Numbered from the stretch's first letter, positions 1 through 13,495 are shown. The stretch: DNA of 20,000 nt from an uncultured virus (IMG/VR IMGVR_UViG_2687453124_000003) (IMGVR_UViG_2687453124_000003); one strand, 5' to 3'. Translations and numbers: made by a program. The notes: generated from the sequence alone by a model not told the origin.

Positions 1-1930
1 GCATACCCAGCGAGCGACCAACGCGACCGACACGGATCAACAGATCCAAGTAGCCGGGACGTTCCTTGAGGAACTCACCGAACTCGTCGATGATGACGAT
101 CAAGTCCGGAAGCGGAGGCCAGCTTGGATCGTTCGGGTGCTTCTTCTGCTGCTCCCGGTAGTCGAAGATGTCCTTGCAACCCTTTTCGGTGGTGATGAAC
201 TCCTCGCGGCGATTCACTTCGCCGTTGATCACCGCACCGAGTCGGTCGACCAGCTCCATCGTGTTCTCAAGGTTGGAGATGGATGCCACGACATGTGGCA
301 GCCCGTCCATTCCCAGGAACGTTGCGCCGCCCTTGAAGTCGGCCAGGATCAGTGCGACTTTGTCCGGGCCGTACATGGCGATGAGCGCCAGCACTATCGC
401 GCGCAGGAAGTACGACTTACCCGATCCGGTACGTCCGGCCACCGCGCCGTGCGGGCCGTTGCCGTCGCGGTTCTCCTCGTAGAAGTTCAGGTAGGTCAGC
501 TCTGAGGTAAGTTCGTCGCCCTTGCGGTAGTAGCCGAACGGAACCTTGATTTCATCGGTATAGGCGTTGCGCTTCCACACTTCGATCAAGTCGTGGGTCT
601 CGATATCGCCGATCTCGAGTACTTCGAAGAAGTCCGGAATGTGGTCGGGGCGATCGTCAACCACAGCTCCGTTGACGCCATAGTTGCGTGGGCGCCATTT
701 GTACATGGCCCGTGCGAATACCTCGGCTTGCGCGATCGTCACCGAGTCCGCGGCGGCCGCGTCGTAGTCGTCGACTGTTGAGACGCGACCGTCCTTGAGC
801 AGAATGCGGCTCTTCATCTTTACGGGGTCGGTGACCAGGTCTTGGCCGTAGCGCACCACGAACCACGTCATGCCGTTGACTCCGCCGGAGATGTTCGCCG
901 GCCAGGACACCATCGCGTCGGGCAGATCGATGATTAGCAGCAGGTGTGGTGGGCGCTCGTCGCTGGCCTCATTGCGCATCCGCTCGATCTGCGCCGCGTG
1001 CATCGCTGCGAATTCGTCGAGGCTGCGCCATGTGAGCAGCCGCGCGCCCAGCCCCTTTTCAACCCGCGTCACATCTTCGGTATGTGGCAGCCACTTCACC
1101 CATTCCCACGTCTTGGGGTCGTTGGTCACCACGCCGATGTTCAGATCACTGGGCCGATGGTTGAACGCCAGCGACATAAGCATGGCCCGTACAAGCCCTA
1201 GCCTGCCTTCCTCGTCACCGCGCATCGCATAGGCGGGAAACTCGTTGAGCCGCACATCGATCGGAAGGTTGGCCACTACAGACAACGTGTTGATGGCGCG
1301 GTCGTAGCGCACCATTGTCGCCGGTTCCTGCATCTCGGGGACGACGTCGTCCGCCTGGATCAGCTTGGGATACAAGGGCGCCACACCGATCCCGACACGG
1401 GCACGCAGGTATGGGTTGGACGTCAGATTCTTGACGTCCGGGTCCGATTCAACGGCTGGCGCAACTACCCGGCCGATGTCGAGATTACGGTCGGCCTGCC
1501 ACATCTCGTGAGTGCCGACCAGCGACAGAAGGTCAGCCGGATGCGGGAAGCACATGGTACGTAGGTCGTGCATAGCGCGGCCCTGGTCGTAGATCTCGAA
1601 ACGCCTCTCGCGCAGCTCGAGATCGTATTCCTCTATCTCTTGGTCGATGTCGCCCCCGCTGCTGCCCTGGTTGCGCATCTGCATGGCGTACATCAGCGGC
1701 ATCATGAGCATGAGCGGCATGCTGGAGAGCATGGTGACGATGGCGCGCTGACCGGTGACCAGTGACATCACCACCATGCCGATCATCACGGCGACCATGA
1801 TCAAAGGCATTGCGCGAAGCCAAATGGGCCGCTTGTCCGGAGCGGGCAAGCCGAGCGGTTCCTTGATCTGCACACCGGTGGGCAACAGCTGAACTGACTC
1901 TCGCGGCGGTGCCCGGAAAACGGTAAACAT
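1..1930 (-). CDS. eccC: Type VII secretion FtsK/SpoIIIE ATPase EccC (EccCa-like), 3' end runs off the window
   Basis: ATG at 1930 with upstream GGAAGGAA RBS. Manual translation MFTVFRAPPRES... shows two N-terminal hydrophobic helices, Walker A GRTGSGKS (~415-440) and Walker B LIVIIDEF (~80-105). Lies directly downstream of eccB. Confidence 0.9.
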   Translation of the reverse strand, partial: MFTVFRAPPRESVQLLPTGVQIKEPLGLPAPDKRPIWLRAMPLIMVAVMIGMVVMSLVTGQRAIVTMLSSMPLMLMMPLMYAMQMRNQGSSGGDIDQEIEEYDLELRERRFEIYDQGRAMHDLRTMCFPHPADLLSLVGTHEMWQADRNLDIGRVVAPAVESDPDVKNLTSNPYLRARVGIGVAPLYPKLIQADDVVPEMQEPATMVRYDRAINTLSVVANLPIDVRLNEFPAYAMRGDEEGRLGLVRAMLMSLAFNHRPSDLNIGVVTNDPKTWEWVKWLPHTEDVTRVEKGLGARLLTWRSLDEFAAMHAAQIERMRNEASDERPPHLLLIIDLPDAMVSWPANISGGVNGMTWFVVRYGQDLVTDPVKMKSRILLKDGRVSTVDDYDAAAADSVTIAQAEVFARAMYKWRPRNYGVNGAVVDDRPDHIPDFFEVLEIGDIETHDLIEVWKRNAYTDEIKVPFGYYRKGDELTSELTYLNFYEENRDGNGPHGAVAGRTGSGKSYFLRAIVLALIAMYGPDKVALILADFKGGATFLGMDGLPHVVASISNLENTMELVDRLGAVINGEVNRREEFITTEKGCKDIFDYREQQKKHPNDPSWPPLPDLIVIIDEFGEFLKERPGYLDLLIRVGRVGRSLGM

Positions 1931-1950
1931 GAGTGTTCCTTCCTTGGCGG

Positions 1951-3684
1951 TCAGCGACCGGCAGTTGAGGGATCGTTGACGGCGGGCACAGGCGTGGCGG
2001 TCTCACCGCTTGCATTGGCCGCGGGATCAGCGGTGGGCGGGCCCGGTTGTTGTGGGGACGAGGGTTCTTGCTCTTCTTCTTCTTCGGAAGGCGGGGGCGG
2101 CGGCGGTTGCCCTTGCGTAGAAGGCGGATTCGGAACCTGGGATGAGGGGTTGATGGTTCCTTGCATGACTTGGGCGTTCTTGATCGACAAGGTCGCGCCA
2201 GGGGCATAGAGCTTGGCAACAGCCGCCGGAATCGGTGTCGGCGAAATCGAATCGAATCCCAGCGCTTTGACGGTTGGGTCATACGAGACTCCGCCGTTGC
2301 GCGCGATTACCACGTCGATGGGGAATCGAGTTCCGTTGGGGTCGATCCACAGCAGTTGCTCCGCTGCAACTGAATCGGTGCTGTCGCCGGTGATGCGCGC
2401 GTACCAGCCGTAACCGGGACGGGTGATTGAATCGGTCGCCTGATCAGTGGTTCCGTTGTTCGGCAGTAGGTGTACTGCCGACACCCGGCCCGACTCGGTA
2501 ACTGGCATACGCGAATTGGTGAAAATCCGGGTATGAGCTGTGAGTTCACCGACGGTCTTGGTCCAGCTCCAGCACAGGGCAGGCTCACTGACCAGCGTCG
2601 GCACCTGAGCGGGGAAACGTGAATCGTCCACGATTGCGATCCGCGGCATCGCCTGCACCGAGGCCGGGTCGTCGACGAGCTTCTGCGCGGCTCCCGTGTT
2701 GATCATCATCTGCGCGAGAACAGGACTGACTTGCTGTACTCCCCCAGACCCGACCAGGTAAAAGGCCCGCGCCCCTGAGGCGGTTGTCACTGTCAGCACA
2801 TCGCCGATGGCTGAACCGTTCACTGTCGGGCTGGGCTGGCCCTGGTTGACGAGCCTTGGCGCGGTGAGCACCGGCGAGGGAGCGATCGTGGCGAGCAGCG
2901 AGGGAGAGACGGTCACTGCGGATTCGATCAGCGATGGTGTCAGGCCCAGCGCGGCCTGGGCGGCATAGTCGCCGCGACCGACTTCTGCCCGAGTGTCCCG
3001 ATACAGCAGCCACAACCGCGTCGGGTCACCAGCGGGTTTAACCAACACCGCGCGGGTGTTTCCCAGATCAGTTCCACCATCGAGCATGTCGTCTCCGGCG
3101 ATCACAGCTGTGGTGATGTCGCCGGTCTTGAGCAGCGAGAGCGGTACCGCGGTGTCACGCCAGTCGCACACGGTCCACACCGCTGTTTCATCAGTTCGGG
3201 GCGACAACAGATTCGGCGCGCTGGGGATGCCCATGAGCGGGCCGGTGGGCAGCGAACGCAGCGCTGCGTCGGTGGCCACTTTGGCTTCCTCCGGCTTGCC
3301 GACGATCAGGCGTGCCGAAGCCAGGTTGGTTACTGGGTGCAGCCGGCCGTTGAACTGAACGAAGATGCCGCCGGAACGAGTTGTCATGATCGCGGCGACG
3401 CCTGAATCGGGCTTGGGGTTGATCAGCGAGACGATGAAGGCCGCCACGAGAACAAGCACGCCGCCCACGAGGCTCACTGACAGCGACCCCCGCAGACGAG
3501 TCAGGGGCGAGCCGACACCGCGCACATCCTGACGCGACAGTGCTTCGTCGATGCGATTGAGTTCACGCTTGTACCCTTTGATCTGGCGACCGGTGGTCAC
3601 GTACCAAGGCACTGCTGTATCGGTGCGATTGCGTGCACGCTTGGGCCCCTCGGCCTGTCGGCCATCGGCAGAATTCCCGGCCAC
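1951..3684 (-). CDS. eccB: Type VII secretion membrane protein EccB
   Basis: TTGRQIKGY N-terminal motif, single TM helix, LHPVTNLASARLI and GIPSAP motifs, W-T-V-C-D and LCWSW cysteines, Pro/Glu-rich tail. GTG at 3684 is preceded by GAAGGAG (the ORF track starts at 3750). Confidence 0.92.
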   Translation of the reverse strand: MAGNSADGRQAEGPKRARNRTDTAVPWYVTTGRQIKGYKRELNRIDEALSRQDVRGVGSPLTRLRGSLSVSLVGGVLVLVAAFIVSLINPKPDSGVAAIMTTRSGGIFVQFNGRLHPVTNLASARLIVGKPEEAKVATDAALRSLPTGPLMGIPSAPNLLSPRTDETAVWTVCDWRDTAVPLSLLKTGDITTAVIAGDDMLDGGTDLGNTRAVLVKPAGDPTRLWLLYRDTRAEVGRGDYAAQAALGLTPSLIESAVTVSPSLLATIAPSPVLTAPRLVNQGQPSPTVNGSAIGDVLTVTTASGARAFYLVGSGGVQQVSPVLAQMMINTGAAQKLVDDPASVQAMPRIAIVDDSRFPAQVPTLVSEPALCWSWTKTVGELTAHTRIFTNSRMPVTESGRVSAVHLLPNNGTTDQATDSITRPGYGWYARITGDSTDSVAAEQLLWIDPNGTRFPIDVVIARNGGVSYDPTVKALGFDSISPTPIPAAVAKLYAPGATLSIKNAQVMQGTINPSSQVPNPPSTQGQPPPPPPSEEEEEQEPSSPQQPGPPTADPAANASGETATPVPAVNDPSTAGR

Positions 3685-3837
3685 CGCAACTCCTTCTTCG
3701 CCAAGCCAGCCGGCCAGGCGGCCGGTCTCGATGCGTGGGGAGGGTGGCAAAAACCAGCGACTACAGCAGCCCGCGGCGCGAGGTGCGACAAAAGGGCAGC
3801 CGCGTCTGGCACCGCTGTTCAGACAAGCCGTGGTGTA

Positions 3838-7628: not shown

Positions 7629-8518
7629 CAGTCCGATTCCCCGGAGCACGGCACCAACCCAATCTCGCCGATCACATCGTCGAAGGTTCCAAGCAAATCG
7701 CCTGCAATCTCGTTCGATATCTCTATAACCGAGAACGCATCGATTGCACCAACATCTTTAGCGGTGGCCAGACGCTACACCGCCTGATCAGCTGAAACCA
7801 CACTCTGCGGCCAAACGCAGCGCCTCACCTCCCCGAATTTAGCTGGGCAATGTCGCTGACCAGTGATACCGTCAGCTCGTGACTTTGATACGCCTCGACC
7901 AGCGAGTTGCCGGGATGCAGACAGCATCACCGGCGGCTTTGTCGTGGCTGGAATCGGTCATCAAGACCCAAGAGCTCTCCACGGCCACGAGCCACGATTT
8001 CGGCCAGCCCAGACGCTTCCGGTCACCCCGATATGACCTATCCGCCCTCCCCGTGGGCGAGCGCCCCGATCGGAAGCAAGGGCCAGGGAACAAATCTCAT
8101 AAAAATCTCAATATTTGCGTTTCTGCTGATAGGGATGTCCGCTGACACTCCCTTAGTTCATCACGCTTTGAATTACCTTGCCGCACAGCCGATTTAGATA
8201 AATTGTGCTTTACAAGACTCGTATTCCGTAGCACCATCATGTTCAGCACGAACGAGAAGATCGCTCGATTCGCTGCCGCACGCGGGACGCTAAGGCGTTC
8301 TCCTGCCAGGACTTTGAAAACTCCAGAGTGTGTGATGCACCGCCCCTCACGAGGGTCGATGAACAAGCCGTCTCGGCGCCCGGGGCTCCCAAGAGAGTCA
8401 ATGACCGGTCAGCCAGTCGAGCATGCTCATCCTCAATCCTCCTGTCGGGGCGGTCCGCCGGGCGCCGCCATGCGCCCGGCCCTCATGCCAGCTTTCCGTT
8501 AGGAAGCAGGTATGAGTT

Positions 8519-8560
8519 CCGTTTGGTTGGATTGGTGTCAAATCCATTGCAACCAAACGG
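8519..8560. repeat. 11-bp inverted repeat immediately before the first tRNA
   Basis: CCGTTTGGTTG (8519-8529) / CAACCAAACGG (8550-8560). Confidence 0.7.
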
Positions 8561-8564
8561 ATAT

Positions 8565-8638
8565 GCGCCTCTAGCTCATCTGGCCAGAGCACCTGACTCT
8601 TAATCAGGGGGTACGGGGTTCGAGACCCCGGGGGCGTA
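8565..8638 (+). tRNA. tRNA-Lys(CTT)
   Basis: Cloverleaf; anticodon arm CCTGA-CTCTTAA-TCAGG. Confidence 0.93.
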
Positions 8639-8640
8639 CG

Positions 8641-9124
8641 TAGCGTGACGTGCGGTGGAGTAGACCGCACACGTACCAGCGGGTGGTGCCGGGTACTGGG
8701 TACGCGGCCAAGGTGCCGCAACCGACCACCAATCGGCTCCTACCCACTCGCAGATTCTTCCGGTGTCAGAACCGGTTGGGGTGTGGGGACGGCACCCATA
8801 GGCGCGAGGTATACCGCCAACCGTCCACGGCTCGATTGCTCCGATCCCACTCCTCCTTCGCAAGGCGGAGCGGCGCGGCATCTCACCGCGAAACGACAAC
8901 CCGTTCACCCAGTAGGGGCACCTAACGGTGAGCGGCACGGTGCAGGGTAAGACACCTTCGAGTGGGTCGAATCAGAGAGGGACACCGGCACACCGGTGTG
9001 GCGCCGTGGACAGACACGGGGGCGATAATGCAGCCCTTGACGGAGCAGGAGCCGCCTCGTTCTGGCGGCAGGCTAGAAATCCGAACACCGAGTGGTCCCG
9101 TCGGGCGCAACAATCCGGGACACT
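8641..9124 (+). ncRNA. Unidentified large, highly structured ncRNA candidate (~480 nt)
   Basis: No convincing ORF; more than 10 hairpins plus nested long-range stems; exactly bounded by tRNA-Lys and tRNA-Gly. Confidence 0.6.
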
Positions 9125-9196
9125 GCGAGCGTGGTCCAATGGCTACGACCTCAGACTTCCAATCTGATGATGCGGGTTCGATTCCCGTCGCTCGCT
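9125..9196 (+). tRNA. tRNA-Gly(TCC)
   Basis: TCAGA-CTTCCAA-TCTGA; U73. Confidence 0.93.
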
Positions 9197-9198
9197 CT

Positions 9199-9300
9199 TG
9201 GTGCCCACGACGGTGGGTAGGGACAGAGGACGGTCCCTTCGCCACGGGGTTCGATTCCCCGCGTTGGCTTCGGCCCGCGGTGCGGAACTGGTGATGCCAG
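9199..9300 (+). ncRNA. Circularly permuted tRNA-like element (YrlA-like topology), candidate
   Basis: T arm CGGGG-TTCGATT-CCCCG, then a 7-position acceptor-like stem closed by UUCG, then a D-loop-like GCGGAACTGGTGA. Confidence 0.45.
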
Positions 9301-9349
9301 CTGGTCGGTGCCAGGTACCGGATCACTGCCGACCTTCTCCAAACATCTC

Positions 9350-9434
9350 GGCCCTGTGGCGAAACATGGCAGCCGCGCCGGATTCAAACTCCGGTGTCCG
9401 ACAGGACGTGTGGGTTCGATTCCCTCCAGGGCTA
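9350..9434 (+). tRNA. tRNA-Leu(CAA)
   Basis: CCGGA-TTCAAAC-TCCGG; long variable arm; A73. Confidence 0.92.
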
Positions 9435-10123: not shown

Positions 10124-10257
10124 GCACTTCTCCCCTTCGCGGGAGGTGTGGGGGCTGGTTCCGGCCCCGGCGTCAACGGAGGGTTCGCGTGGACCCTGTA
10201 CCGCCCGATTGAGGTTGGCGGACGCAGAGCGCAGGTAACCCCTGTGGCAGGACACAT

Positions 10258-10331
10258 GCCCCTCTGGCCCAACTGGCAGAGGCGTCGGCTTCAGGTGCCG
10301 AAGGTTCCCGGTTCGAATCCGGGGAGGGGTA
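10258..10331 (+). tRNA. tRNA-Leu(CAG) lacking the long variable arm
   Basis: TCGGC-TTCAGGT-GCCGA; Leu-type D arm and A73, but only a 5-nt variable loop. Confidence 0.85.
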
Positions 10332-10334
10332 CAA

Positions 10335-11109
10335 CGAGGCATGGCTCGATAACCGGAGGTGACTCCGGGAAAGGTGGGTGTGACACCCCGCCGCCACATC
10401 TCTACGGGGATGTGGCACACCATGCACGGCTCCCGCAAGGAGTACCTGGGCAACCGGGTGCCACAGCGGTCCGAGTTCGGCGACAGAAGGGACGGCGAGT
10501 GCTCACCTTCGCGCCGGCGCCACGCAGCGCCGGCACCGCCACGTGAACGAGGACTGCCAGCGGGGTGCGGGGGAACACCAGTCCGAGCTCGCCAGGCGAG
10601 GGCGGTTCCCATGACCTCGGAATCCGGTGGGCGCATCGGTGCACGACGAAGAGCGCAGCGGCTTGGCGGCCAAGCGCGAGGGTGTGAAGCATTCTGTGGC
10701 TCAAAAGGTTACGGAACTTCGCGGGAAAGCACATCCTCAGTCACAAACACTAGCTCAATTGGCAGAGCAATCGTTTCTGGAACGGTAGGTCGCCGGTTCA
10801 AGTCCGGCGTGTTTATCCAAGCGAAAGACTTTCCCTGCCACGGCTCGAAAGCGCCGTAATCCTCGGCCCTGCACAGGGAATCGAGGCAACCGTGAACTCG
10901 CAAGGTGATCGGATGTCCGTGAGGCAGTAGAGCAATACAGGGGTTAGCTCCCCCTGTGCGAATCGAAACCTGCGGAGTAGATCGTGGCATGACGAGTGGC
11001 TGCCGCAAGCAGCCCGGCGTGACGGTTACCAGGGGAACCTGGATGGATAAGTCGGGAAACCATAATCCGATGAGAGACCGTTGCTTTGGGGCCTAATCTC
11101 AGCCCCAAA
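10335..11109 (+). ncRNA. GOLLD-like large ncRNA
   Basis: ~775 nt structured non-coding stretch with GNRA hairpins, a GGCTCAAAAGG motif and 3' hairpin TTTGGGGC-CTAATCTCA-GCCCCAAA whose loop can pair with upstream TGAGA. These resemble GOLLD features as recalled; the 5' boundary is approximate. Confidence 0.75.
10744..10819 (+). tRNA. tRNA with CTG anticodon (Gln-like) embedded in the GOLLD-like RNA
   Basis: ATCGT-TTCTGGA-ACGGT; C1:A72 mismatch, U73, encoded CCA. Confidence 0.8.
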
Positions 11110-13027: not shown

Positions 13028-13495
13028 ATGACGACGATCGTGCCCGCGCCTTCCGTGCGGGTGTTCAACGCCGACTATTCGTTCCTCGACACCGTGCGCT
13101 GGCAAGACGCGGTCGGCATGCTTCTACGTGACGTGGCGTACGCGCTGGAGGCCCACGTGCCCCCGCGCATCGTCCGCTCGCCAAGCGCCGAGGTGGAGGT
13201 GCCCAAGTCGCTTCTGCTGACTCGGTACGCCCCTGTCCCCTACCGGCGTGATCCGGAGTTCGCCTCGCGTGCCGAGATTCTGCGCAGGGACAACTACCTG
13301 TGCCAGTACGTCGGCTGCGGGGCCAAGGCCACCACGATCGATCACGTGTTCCCGCGTTCGCGCGGCGGCGCACCGTCAACGTGGACGAACCAGGTAGGCG
13401 CGTGCGAGCCGTGCAACGGCCGCAAGGCAGACCGTACACCGGAGGAAGCGGGTATGAAGCTGATCCGCGAGCCTTTCCGGCCAGCGCACATCTGA
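13028..13495 (+). CDS. HNH endonuclease
   Basis: RRDNYLCQYVGC...TIDHVFPRSRGG...NQVGACEPCNGRKADRTPEEAGM. Confidence 0.95.
   Translation: MTTIVPAPSVRVFNADYSFLDTVRWQDAVGMLLRDVAYALEAHVPPRIVRSPSAEVEVPKSLLLTRYAPVPYRRDPEFASRAEILRRDNYLCQYVGCGAKATTIDHVFPRSRGGAPSTWTNQVGACEPCNGRKADRTPEEAGMKLIREPFRPAHI

Follow-up and report, generated by a model that had tools for sequence, protein, structure and literature searches.

A conserved, folded and abundantly expressed RNA module in the first spacer of a mycobacterial tRNA array: a putative accessory RNA of an uncatalogued family

The DNA analysed here, referred to throughout as the window, is a stretch of 20,000 nt from an uncultured virus (IMG/VR IMGVR_UViG_2687453124_000003). 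It carries 35 tRNA genes, all on the + strand (ARAGORN), and its array is of the plasmid-like mycobacterial 'tRNA array unit' type described in PMC5966550 and PMC12803027. The array opens with tRNA-Lys(ctt) (8565-8639, +; Rfam tRNA model 56.2 bits). This gene and the following tRNA-Gly(tcc) (9125-9197, +; 63.5 bits), both called by ARAGORN, enclose a + strand spacer of 485 nt (8640-9124) with a GC content of ~64-65%, just as an earlier, sequence-only reading of this region had placed it. A GOLLD RNA (10677-11105, +; Rfam RF02032, 198.5 bits against a gathering score of 150) with an embedded tRNA-Gln(ctg) at 10744-10819 lies 1.5 kb downstream of the spacer. ESX/type VII secretion genes for EccB and an FtsK/SpoIIIE-type ATPase adjoin the array upstream (2-3750, - strand) and an HNH endonuclease gene lies within it (13028-13495); the presence of both fits the plasmid-borne arrays described in PMC12803027.

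The leader of the array contains a 22-nt palindrome (CCGGGCGC..GCGCCCGG; window 8458-8479) that has hardly changed across the five related arrays, with three single-base differences spread over two of them. A long hairpin immediately 5' of tRNA-Lys (8519-8560) varies in sequence between arrays but keeps its pairing. This leader, which is transcribed from the + strand at a depth of 100-122 in RNA run X21, could serve as an operator or as a signal for processing.

We compared the window with four syntenic Lys(ctt)-Gly(tcc) spacers, each likewise preceded by tRNA-Lys(ctt). The spacers of plasmid pCBMA213_1 (locus L001; 190 nt) and genome G665 (L028; 176 nt) correspond to window positions 8640-8826 only. 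In the 238-nt spacer of Mycobacterium sp. D16Q14 (L002, G001), positions 8642-8826 are fused straight to 9082-9121, and a 255-nt core of the window's spacer is missing from all three of these shorter versions. The 705-nt spacer of genome G237 (L005, L043) begins with unrelated sequence that includes a small ORF and continues with a homologue of 8757-9122. Because its parts occur in different sets in related arrays, the spacer is best described as a chain of separable modules, which we call A, B, C and D: pCBMA213_1 and G665 carry A and B, D16Q14 carries A, B and D, G237 carries the small ORF with B, C and D, and the window carries all four modules. The earlier proposal of a single RNA of ~480 nt does not survive this comparison, since its parts are found separately in relatives. 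The sequence that takes the place of module A in G237 (L005 1174-1494) contains a small acidic ORF, which has 72 aa if it starts at GTG 1276 and 106 aa if it starts at ATG 1174, and in which no Pfam family scored above its cut-off.

Module C is present in only two of the five arrays, those of the window and G237, and its distribution does not follow that of the array backbone. The backbone nearest to that of the window is the one in D16Q14 (GOLLD 91.6% identical, tRNA block 78.9%), which lacks C, whereas the GOLLD and tRNA block of G237 are 85.7% and 62.3% identical to those of the window. Across 268 aligned positions the two copies of C are 85.4% identical, a level that equals that of GOLLD and far exceeds that of the tRNA block beside it. 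This indicates that C was gained or lost independently of the backbone, and since the closest array lacks it, an array can do without it. The first spacer behaves like a swap site, with A, C, D or else a small ORF depending on the array, and such behavior suits cargo better than it suits a required processing signal. GOLLD, in comparison, occurs in all five arrays. A full Rfam match was obtained in four of them (197-217 bits across the arrays' GOLLDs), and the GOLLD of G665 was detected by BLAST only, in two pieces ~1.26 kb apart (query 2-292 and 290-429; G665:C1:59838-61526), which suggests an insertion inside it.

The modules other than C also appear to be folded on the + strand. Module A (8643-8751, +) is a compact folded domain closed by a helix of GCGTG 8643-8647 with CTCGC 8747-8751, in which the window copy has a U-U mismatch. 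It is 72-86% identical to its counterparts in pCBMA213_1, D16Q14 and G665 and is absent from G237. Its hairpin at 8650-8670 (GTGCGGT/ACCGCAC) has a matched A/T pair added in relatives, and the four-sequence RNAalifold consensus is more stable than column shuffles (z -5.0 on the + strand and -2.7 on the - strand). Module B (8757-8826, +), the sole module common to all five arrays, comprises a hairpin (CCGGT 8760-8764/ACCGG 8771-8775) and a helix of GGACGG 8787-8792 with CCGTCC 8821-8826 around GGCG/CGCC. Relative to G237 it shows two compensatory changes, U-A to G-C and A-U to G-C (8789/8824), but its column-shuffle scores are weak (z -2.2 on the + strand, -3.0 on the - strand). In the four-sequence consensus of A and B together only two pairs are compensatory, several cells are broken and the covariation term is positive. 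Module D (9095-9121, +) is a hairpin of the GTCCCG/CGGGAC type (stem 9094-9121) directly 5' of tRNA-Gly; it is also found in G237 and D16Q14, is absent from pCBMA213_1 and G665, and its substitutions are pairing-neutral (U-A to U-G or C-G; C-G to U-G).

Module C itself (8826-9094, +; ~270 nt) is predicted to fold into a multi-helix domain (8831-8979) with a closing helix at 8842-8852/8960-8969, followed by four hairpins at 8982-8999, 9004-9019, 9020-9036 and 9051-9069. Folding of the whole 485-nt spacer as a single sequence gave energies that are unremarkable relative to shuffled sequences (z -1.2 on the + strand, -1.1 on the - strand). This is expected at 65% GC, where a single sequence cannot separate structure from chance and relatives are needed. 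Module C alone gave z -3.4 on the + strand in the window copy, a stability that none of 200 shuffles equalled, and -1.2 on the - strand, but the G237 copy alone (z -1.5) was no better than shuffles.

We therefore aligned C and D of the window (8826-9124) with their homologues in G237 (alignment A5) and derived an RNAalifold consensus. Its 77 pairs include six with compensatory changes and six with one-sided (wobble) changes, and none is broken; in a control in which pairing partners were slid, only 38-48% of the cells remained paired. Extending the two-sequence alignment to 8750-9124 gave 95 pairs in 16 helices, with eight compensatory, seven one-sided and no broken pairs. Sliding the 3' partners of this longer consensus by one to three columns left 37-49% of cells paired and no compensatory pair, and the observed values were reached in 5 of 500 partner shuffles. 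Because RNAalifold by construction prefers pairs that fit both rows, we also ran a control of 200 column shuffles, each of which was refolded. For 8826-9124 the consensus energy had z -5.0 on the + strand and -3.8 on the - strand, and the shuffles had 2.05 compensatory pairs on average against the six observed (six reached in 1 of 200 shuffles). The corresponding values for 8750-9124 were z -5.4 and -4.1, and eight compensatory pairs against a mean of 3.65 (eight reached in 2 of 200). These z values are somewhat generous, as column shuffling loses dinucleotide content.

Within C, all 18 substitutions that fall in paired columns preserve the pair, and 23 others fall in unpaired columns. The helix CCGTTCACC/GGTGAGCGG (8901-8909/8927-8935), which carries a GG-GGCA-CC cap, shows three C-G/U-G switches between the window and G237. 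Read from the opposite strand, such switches would give C-A mismatches, so they fit the + strand only. The hairpin ACACCGG/CCGGTGT (8982-8999) has changed from G-C to A-U at 8988/8993 in the relative and the hairpin CCGTG/CACGG (9004-9019) from U-A to C-G at 9007/9016, while the hairpin GCCGCC/GGCGGC (9051-9069) is invariant. The only large insertion in the G237 copy of C is an 18-nt segment that pairs with itself as a hairpin capped by GCAA. The local stems listed in the sequence-only reading are all present at the positions it gave, and most of them are kept in relatives by pairing-preserving changes, although the one at 9051-9069 never varies.

The long-range helices fare less well. Among those of C, compensatory change is found only in 8842-8852/8960-8969, where CCCACTC 8846-8852 pairs with GAGTGGG 8960-8966 and G237 shows both U-A to C-G and C-G to U-G changes. 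The sequence-only reading had assigned this downstream strand to a stem between modules A and C (8742-8750/8959-8967), but G237 lacks 8742-8750 and yet retains GAGTGGG, and positions 8742-8751 pair inside module A in the arrays without C. A second proposed long-range stem, GGTGTC 8762-8767 with GACACC 8951-8956, is likewise contradicted, as G237 has GGGATC here and two of the six pairs would break. The two ends of C could pair with each other in either of two ways, CAC 8826-8828 with GUG 9092-9094 or GCUCG 8830-8834 with CGAGU 9089-9093, both of them invariant. When single-sequence folds were transferred to the other copy, the window fold kept 12 changed pairs and broke 12, and the G237 fold kept 11 and broke 8, the broken pairs being mainly in long-range helices. 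This poor transfer makes the long-range architecture of C uncertain. We thus regard the hairpins and the helix 8842-8852/8960-8969 as supported by the aligned sequences, and the remaining predicted long-range architecture as provisional. With only two divergent copies of C available from the searches, covariation between them is suggestive but cannot reach statistical proof. Collecting homologues, as the sequence-only reading had proposed, thus yielded four syntenic spacers, but for C only one divergent homologue with six to eight compensatory pairs, too shallow for a test of the R-scape type.

We used published RNA-seq runs to examine transcription of the spacer. Six RNA runs contain all or part of the stretch and four were mapped onto 8450-9350. 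The stranded raw reads of X21 (3373 mapped, of which 3057 are at least 99% alike), counted in 30-nt bins by reads whose first mate lies on the - strand, gave a depth of 100-122 over the upstream leader (8450-8573), 9-20 over module A and 45-93 over module B; over 8636-8790 as a whole the depth was 9-45. Depth then rose to 208 at 8822-8852 and to 608-949 across 8853-9038, and fell to 327 and then 196 over 9039-9100, to 50 at 9101-9131 (module D) and to 35-39 over tRNA-Gly. C therefore accumulates 10- to 100-fold above neighboring spacer segments. The + strand tRNA genes and the leader share this first-mate-minus polarity, which indicates that the library is reverse-stranded and that the C RNA comes from the + strand. 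First-mate-plus depth over C was 62-183, corresponding to ~10-20% of reads with the opposite polarity.

The trapezoid formed by these depths fits an RNA of ~8822-9100. Forty molecules end at 9092, a 3' end that comes from one library (X21), and the adapter-joined ends seen at 8850, at 8972 and at other positions may reflect fragmentation rather than a mapped 5' end. Assembled contigs from two other RNA studies cover the 3' half of C only (8953-9077 in X19, at depths of 1598 and 889; 8949-9107 in X17), and X15 yielded a single flat contig of 2520 nt, which is not proof of transcription. Fourteen DNA runs from five studies, under three organism labels, contain all sampled words of the stretch; they are possible sources of it and so not independent support. 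A discrete + strand transcript is present, as the sequence-only reading had anticipated, but it corresponds to module C rather than to the whole 485-nt spacer, with reads piling up over ~8822-9100 only. Since the ends of the abundant RNA (a 3' end at ~9092 and a rise after ~8822) do not lie at tRNA borders, processing of the flanking tRNAs, the release mechanism suggested earlier, is by itself an insufficient account of it. At position 8847, 43 of the 238 X21 RNA reads have C>T. The partner of this base, G8965, lies in the supported helix, and the change would give U-G from C-G; either a variant of the strain or of this copy, or an artefact close to where reads begin, could account for it.

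We next asked what is recognizable in the spacer. None of the 4227 families of Rfam 15 matched inside it at gathering thresholds. At E<=10, a search of 8500-9350 and of the G237 spacer returned, inside the spacer, only a chance match to mir-1228 (E 1.5, - strand). Neither copy thus matches GOLLD (RF02032), ROOL, tmRNA, RNase P, introns, T-box or riboswitch models at E<=10, in agreement with the sequence-only reading, which had seen no tmRNA, RNase P or intron hallmarks and no known family. No tRNA or tmRNA was found inside 8640-9124 by ARAGORN or with the Rfam tRNA clan at E<=10. The spacer is non-coding: no Pfam family matched in it at E<=0.1, every shared reading frame is interrupted by 1-nt indels (alignment columns 32, 220 and 291), a shared GTG-started ORF diverges past ~30 aa and runs into the tRNA, and substitutions are distributed by position modulo 3 as 17/14/10, without 3-base periodicity. 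The conserved protein-coding signature that the sequence-only reading had named as a possible refutation was thus not found. Neither C nor A+B is repeated within the window, the signal for an intermolecular duplex between C and GOLLD is within the range of shuffles, and a promoter and terminator scan, otherwise uninformative, found no terminator-like site on the + strand between 7600 and 9500. In passages of four papers on mycobacterial tRNA arrays (PMC5966550, PMC6582537, PMC9569102 and PMC12803027; Morgado et al. 2020 lies outside this set), the only components named are tRNAs, tmRNA, GOLLD, described there as a '~430 nt structured RNA', and the HNH endonuclease.

The known distribution of C is very narrow. 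We searched by BLAST ~820 distinct genomes of Mycobacteriaceae (401 at family level, 21 of the genus of G237 and 401 of the genus of G001, the latter without G630), taking one genome per species, so that the search covers diversity between species rather than between strains. Only G001, G237 and G665 matched, and C is known in two copies, those of the window and G237. The other 21 family-level matches, of 21-65 nt (E 7.7e-4 to 0.009), were attributed to chance. In blastn searches, 50,697 phage records returned nothing and 72,556 plasmid records nothing beyond A+B. Exact-pattern scans with three patterns found nothing in viral contigs, a first such scan of metagenome contigs found nothing, and the scan of genome contigs found D16Q14 only. 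A second metagenome scan returned eight loci that we regard as chance 22-nt matches, as seven have no tRNA, the eighth has only a distant one, and none shows blastn similarity outside the pattern itself. A covariance model of 194 columns covering 8826-9000 of C (R1) recovered just the two known copies. Across 21 and then 151 further genomes (172 in all) it gave two weak matches (E 0.01-0.07) with no tRNAs nearby, which were rejected. R1 and a corresponding model of A+B (R2) found nothing in the arrays of phage Rey, prophi86-1, G768 and G626, and a 185-nt spacer after tRNA-Lys(ctt) in G768 gave no convincing alignment to A+B. Arrays of this kind are themselves rare, with GOLLD detected in 4 of 400 genomes of the genus of G001, so that the denominator for C is small.

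Module C is a conserved, folded + strand RNA that has the orientation of the array, builds up strongly and is an optional part of it. There is good evidence that it is real and limited evidence for its exact fold. Taken together, we think it probable, with real room for doubt, that the spacer consists of four independently conserved + strand RNA modules and that C encodes a stable and highly structured non-coding RNA, putatively a trans-acting accessory RNA, whose family is uncatalogued. C would be cut by endonucleases from the polycistronic tRNA precursor, near the B/C and C/D borders rather than at tRNA ends, and trimmed to its folded core, and might then persist thanks to its compact fold. 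Our best guess is that C acts in trans as accessory cargo of the array, and its likeliest role would be to bind proteins as a decoy or scaffold, in connection with tRNA metabolism or with an anti-defence role that has been proposed for such arrays. The term 'putative antidefense system' is that of PMC12803027. A bolder version, for which we would claim only a small chance, is that C founds a family of array-borne ornate RNAs acting either as an RNA-only assembly, like GOLLD and ROOL, or as a decoy for host nucleases that target tRNAs in defence, with the first spacer as a swap site for RNA cargo (A, B, C, D or a small ORF).

The abundance of C might instead be that of a stable processing by-product, a GC-rich segment that folds tightly by chance, survives tRNA excision and has no function. 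The absence of C from three of the five related arrays, including the closest one, would fit such a by-product, as would the 64% GC content, which eases stable folding, the whole-spacer z of only -1.2, the z of -1.5 for the G237 copy and the very narrow family (2 of ~820 genomes by BLAST, none in the 72,556 plasmids beyond A+B and none in the 50,697 phage records). Nevertheless, a functionless segment would not be expected to remain 85.4% identical between arrays whose tRNA blocks are 62% identical, nor to keep pairing through all 18 of its paired-column substitutions with six compensatory pairs. An alignment-level z of -5.0 and an insertion in G237 that is itself a capped hairpin also argue against it, and we consider a by-product unlikely. 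Alternatively, C might act in cis as a leader element (an attenuator, a T-box-like element or another sensor) controlling transcription or processing of the downstream tRNAs. Its place would suit this, as C directly follows the first tRNA near the array's 5' end, with a conserved leader upstream, and its transcript builds up as a discrete short fragment with an end at ~9092. However, the + strand has no terminator-like site between 7600 and 9500, and RNA depth downstream (100-167 over 9225-9317) is not below that upstream (100-122 over 8450-8573). Neither a T-box nor a riboswitch matched at E<=10, and three related arrays manage without C. Control in cis therefore seems to us quite improbable.

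The original proposal that all 485 nt form one ornate RNA, a divergent member of the GOLLD/ROOL class freed by processing of the flanking tRNAs, has in its favor the tRNA-array setting with GOLLD 1.5 kb downstream and some conserved + strand structure in all four modules. We now find it very hard to uphold, given that the modules are found apart in relatives, that the long-range stems between A and C fail in G237, that RNA depths over A and C lie up to 100-fold apart, and that neither GOLLD nor ROOL matched at E<=10. What stands of it is that the spacer is non-coding, transcribed and structured on the + strand and that it matches no known family; a tie by descent to GOLLD or ROOL does not. Least credible of all is that the spacer consists of decayed former tRNA genes. 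In prophi86-1 and Rey a tRNA-Ile does lie between tRNA-Lys(ctt) and tRNA-Gly, and the next spacer of the window contains a tRNA-like stretch (9203-9268), but nothing tRNA-like was found inside 8640-9124 with ARAGORN or the Rfam tRNA model at E<=10, and the conserved fold is a multi-helix junction rather than a series of cloverleaves.

The known systems closest to C are GOLLD, ROOL and the Ms1 or 6S-type RNAs. GOLLD and ROOL have recently been shown to build RNA-only cages, and Ms1 and 6S-type RNAs are abundant, structured mycobacterial RNAs of ~300 nt. C resembles the latter in abundance, structure and size, but it has no Rfam match, is predicted to form a branched multi-hairpin fold rather than a rod with a central bubble, and is plasmid or array cargo rather than a core gene. 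GOLLD, like C, is a structured non-coding RNA within tRNA arrays of mobile elements, known from mycobacterial tRNA clusters (PMC6582537, PMC9569102), and the two are about equally conserved between the window and G237 (85.7% and 85.4%). In contrast to GOLLD, C gives no match to the GOLLD model at E<=10, is ~270 nt rather than ~430 nt long here, has no embedded tRNA and is found in two rather than all five of the arrays. ROOL, according to PMC12286853, is a highly structured RNA of ~660 nt in phages and prophages that often lies by tRNA islands and forms RNA-only cages. C shares with ROOL its structured nature and tRNA-array setting but, at ~270 nt, is much shorter and gives no match to it at E<=10. 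Because C fails to match either model, its likeness to GOLLD and ROOL is one of context only and it is a member of neither family. In our view it is a family of its own, new but of a kind already known, the RNAs of tRNA arrays.

Should this hold, the same mycobacterial arrays would contain a second folded RNA unrelated to GOLLD, and arrays would carry modular RNA cargo besides their tRNAs. Being abundant and yet optional among close arrays, C offers a natural presence/absence contrast on what such RNAs do, and with ~270 nt already covered by published RNA-seq it is tractable for structure probing and cryo-EM, its narrow distribution being the caveat.

Three further features touch on the array and its relatives. 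The window's GOLLD has relatives at 67-71% identity in Rey-like mycobacteriophages, and short 5' matches in prophages of M. abscessus. A GOLLD-like match with 68% identity at 10228-10604 of another locus (L050, G626:C38) has no tRNA gene within 14 kb and so lies outside any array. Within the window, the spacer between tRNA-Gly and tRNA-Leu contains at 9203-9268 the tRNA-like stretch mentioned above, with a weak match to the mascRNA-menRNA model (23.8 bits, E 0.028). This stretch may be a decayed or non-canonical tRNA, and RNA depth in X21 is 100-167 over 9225-9317.
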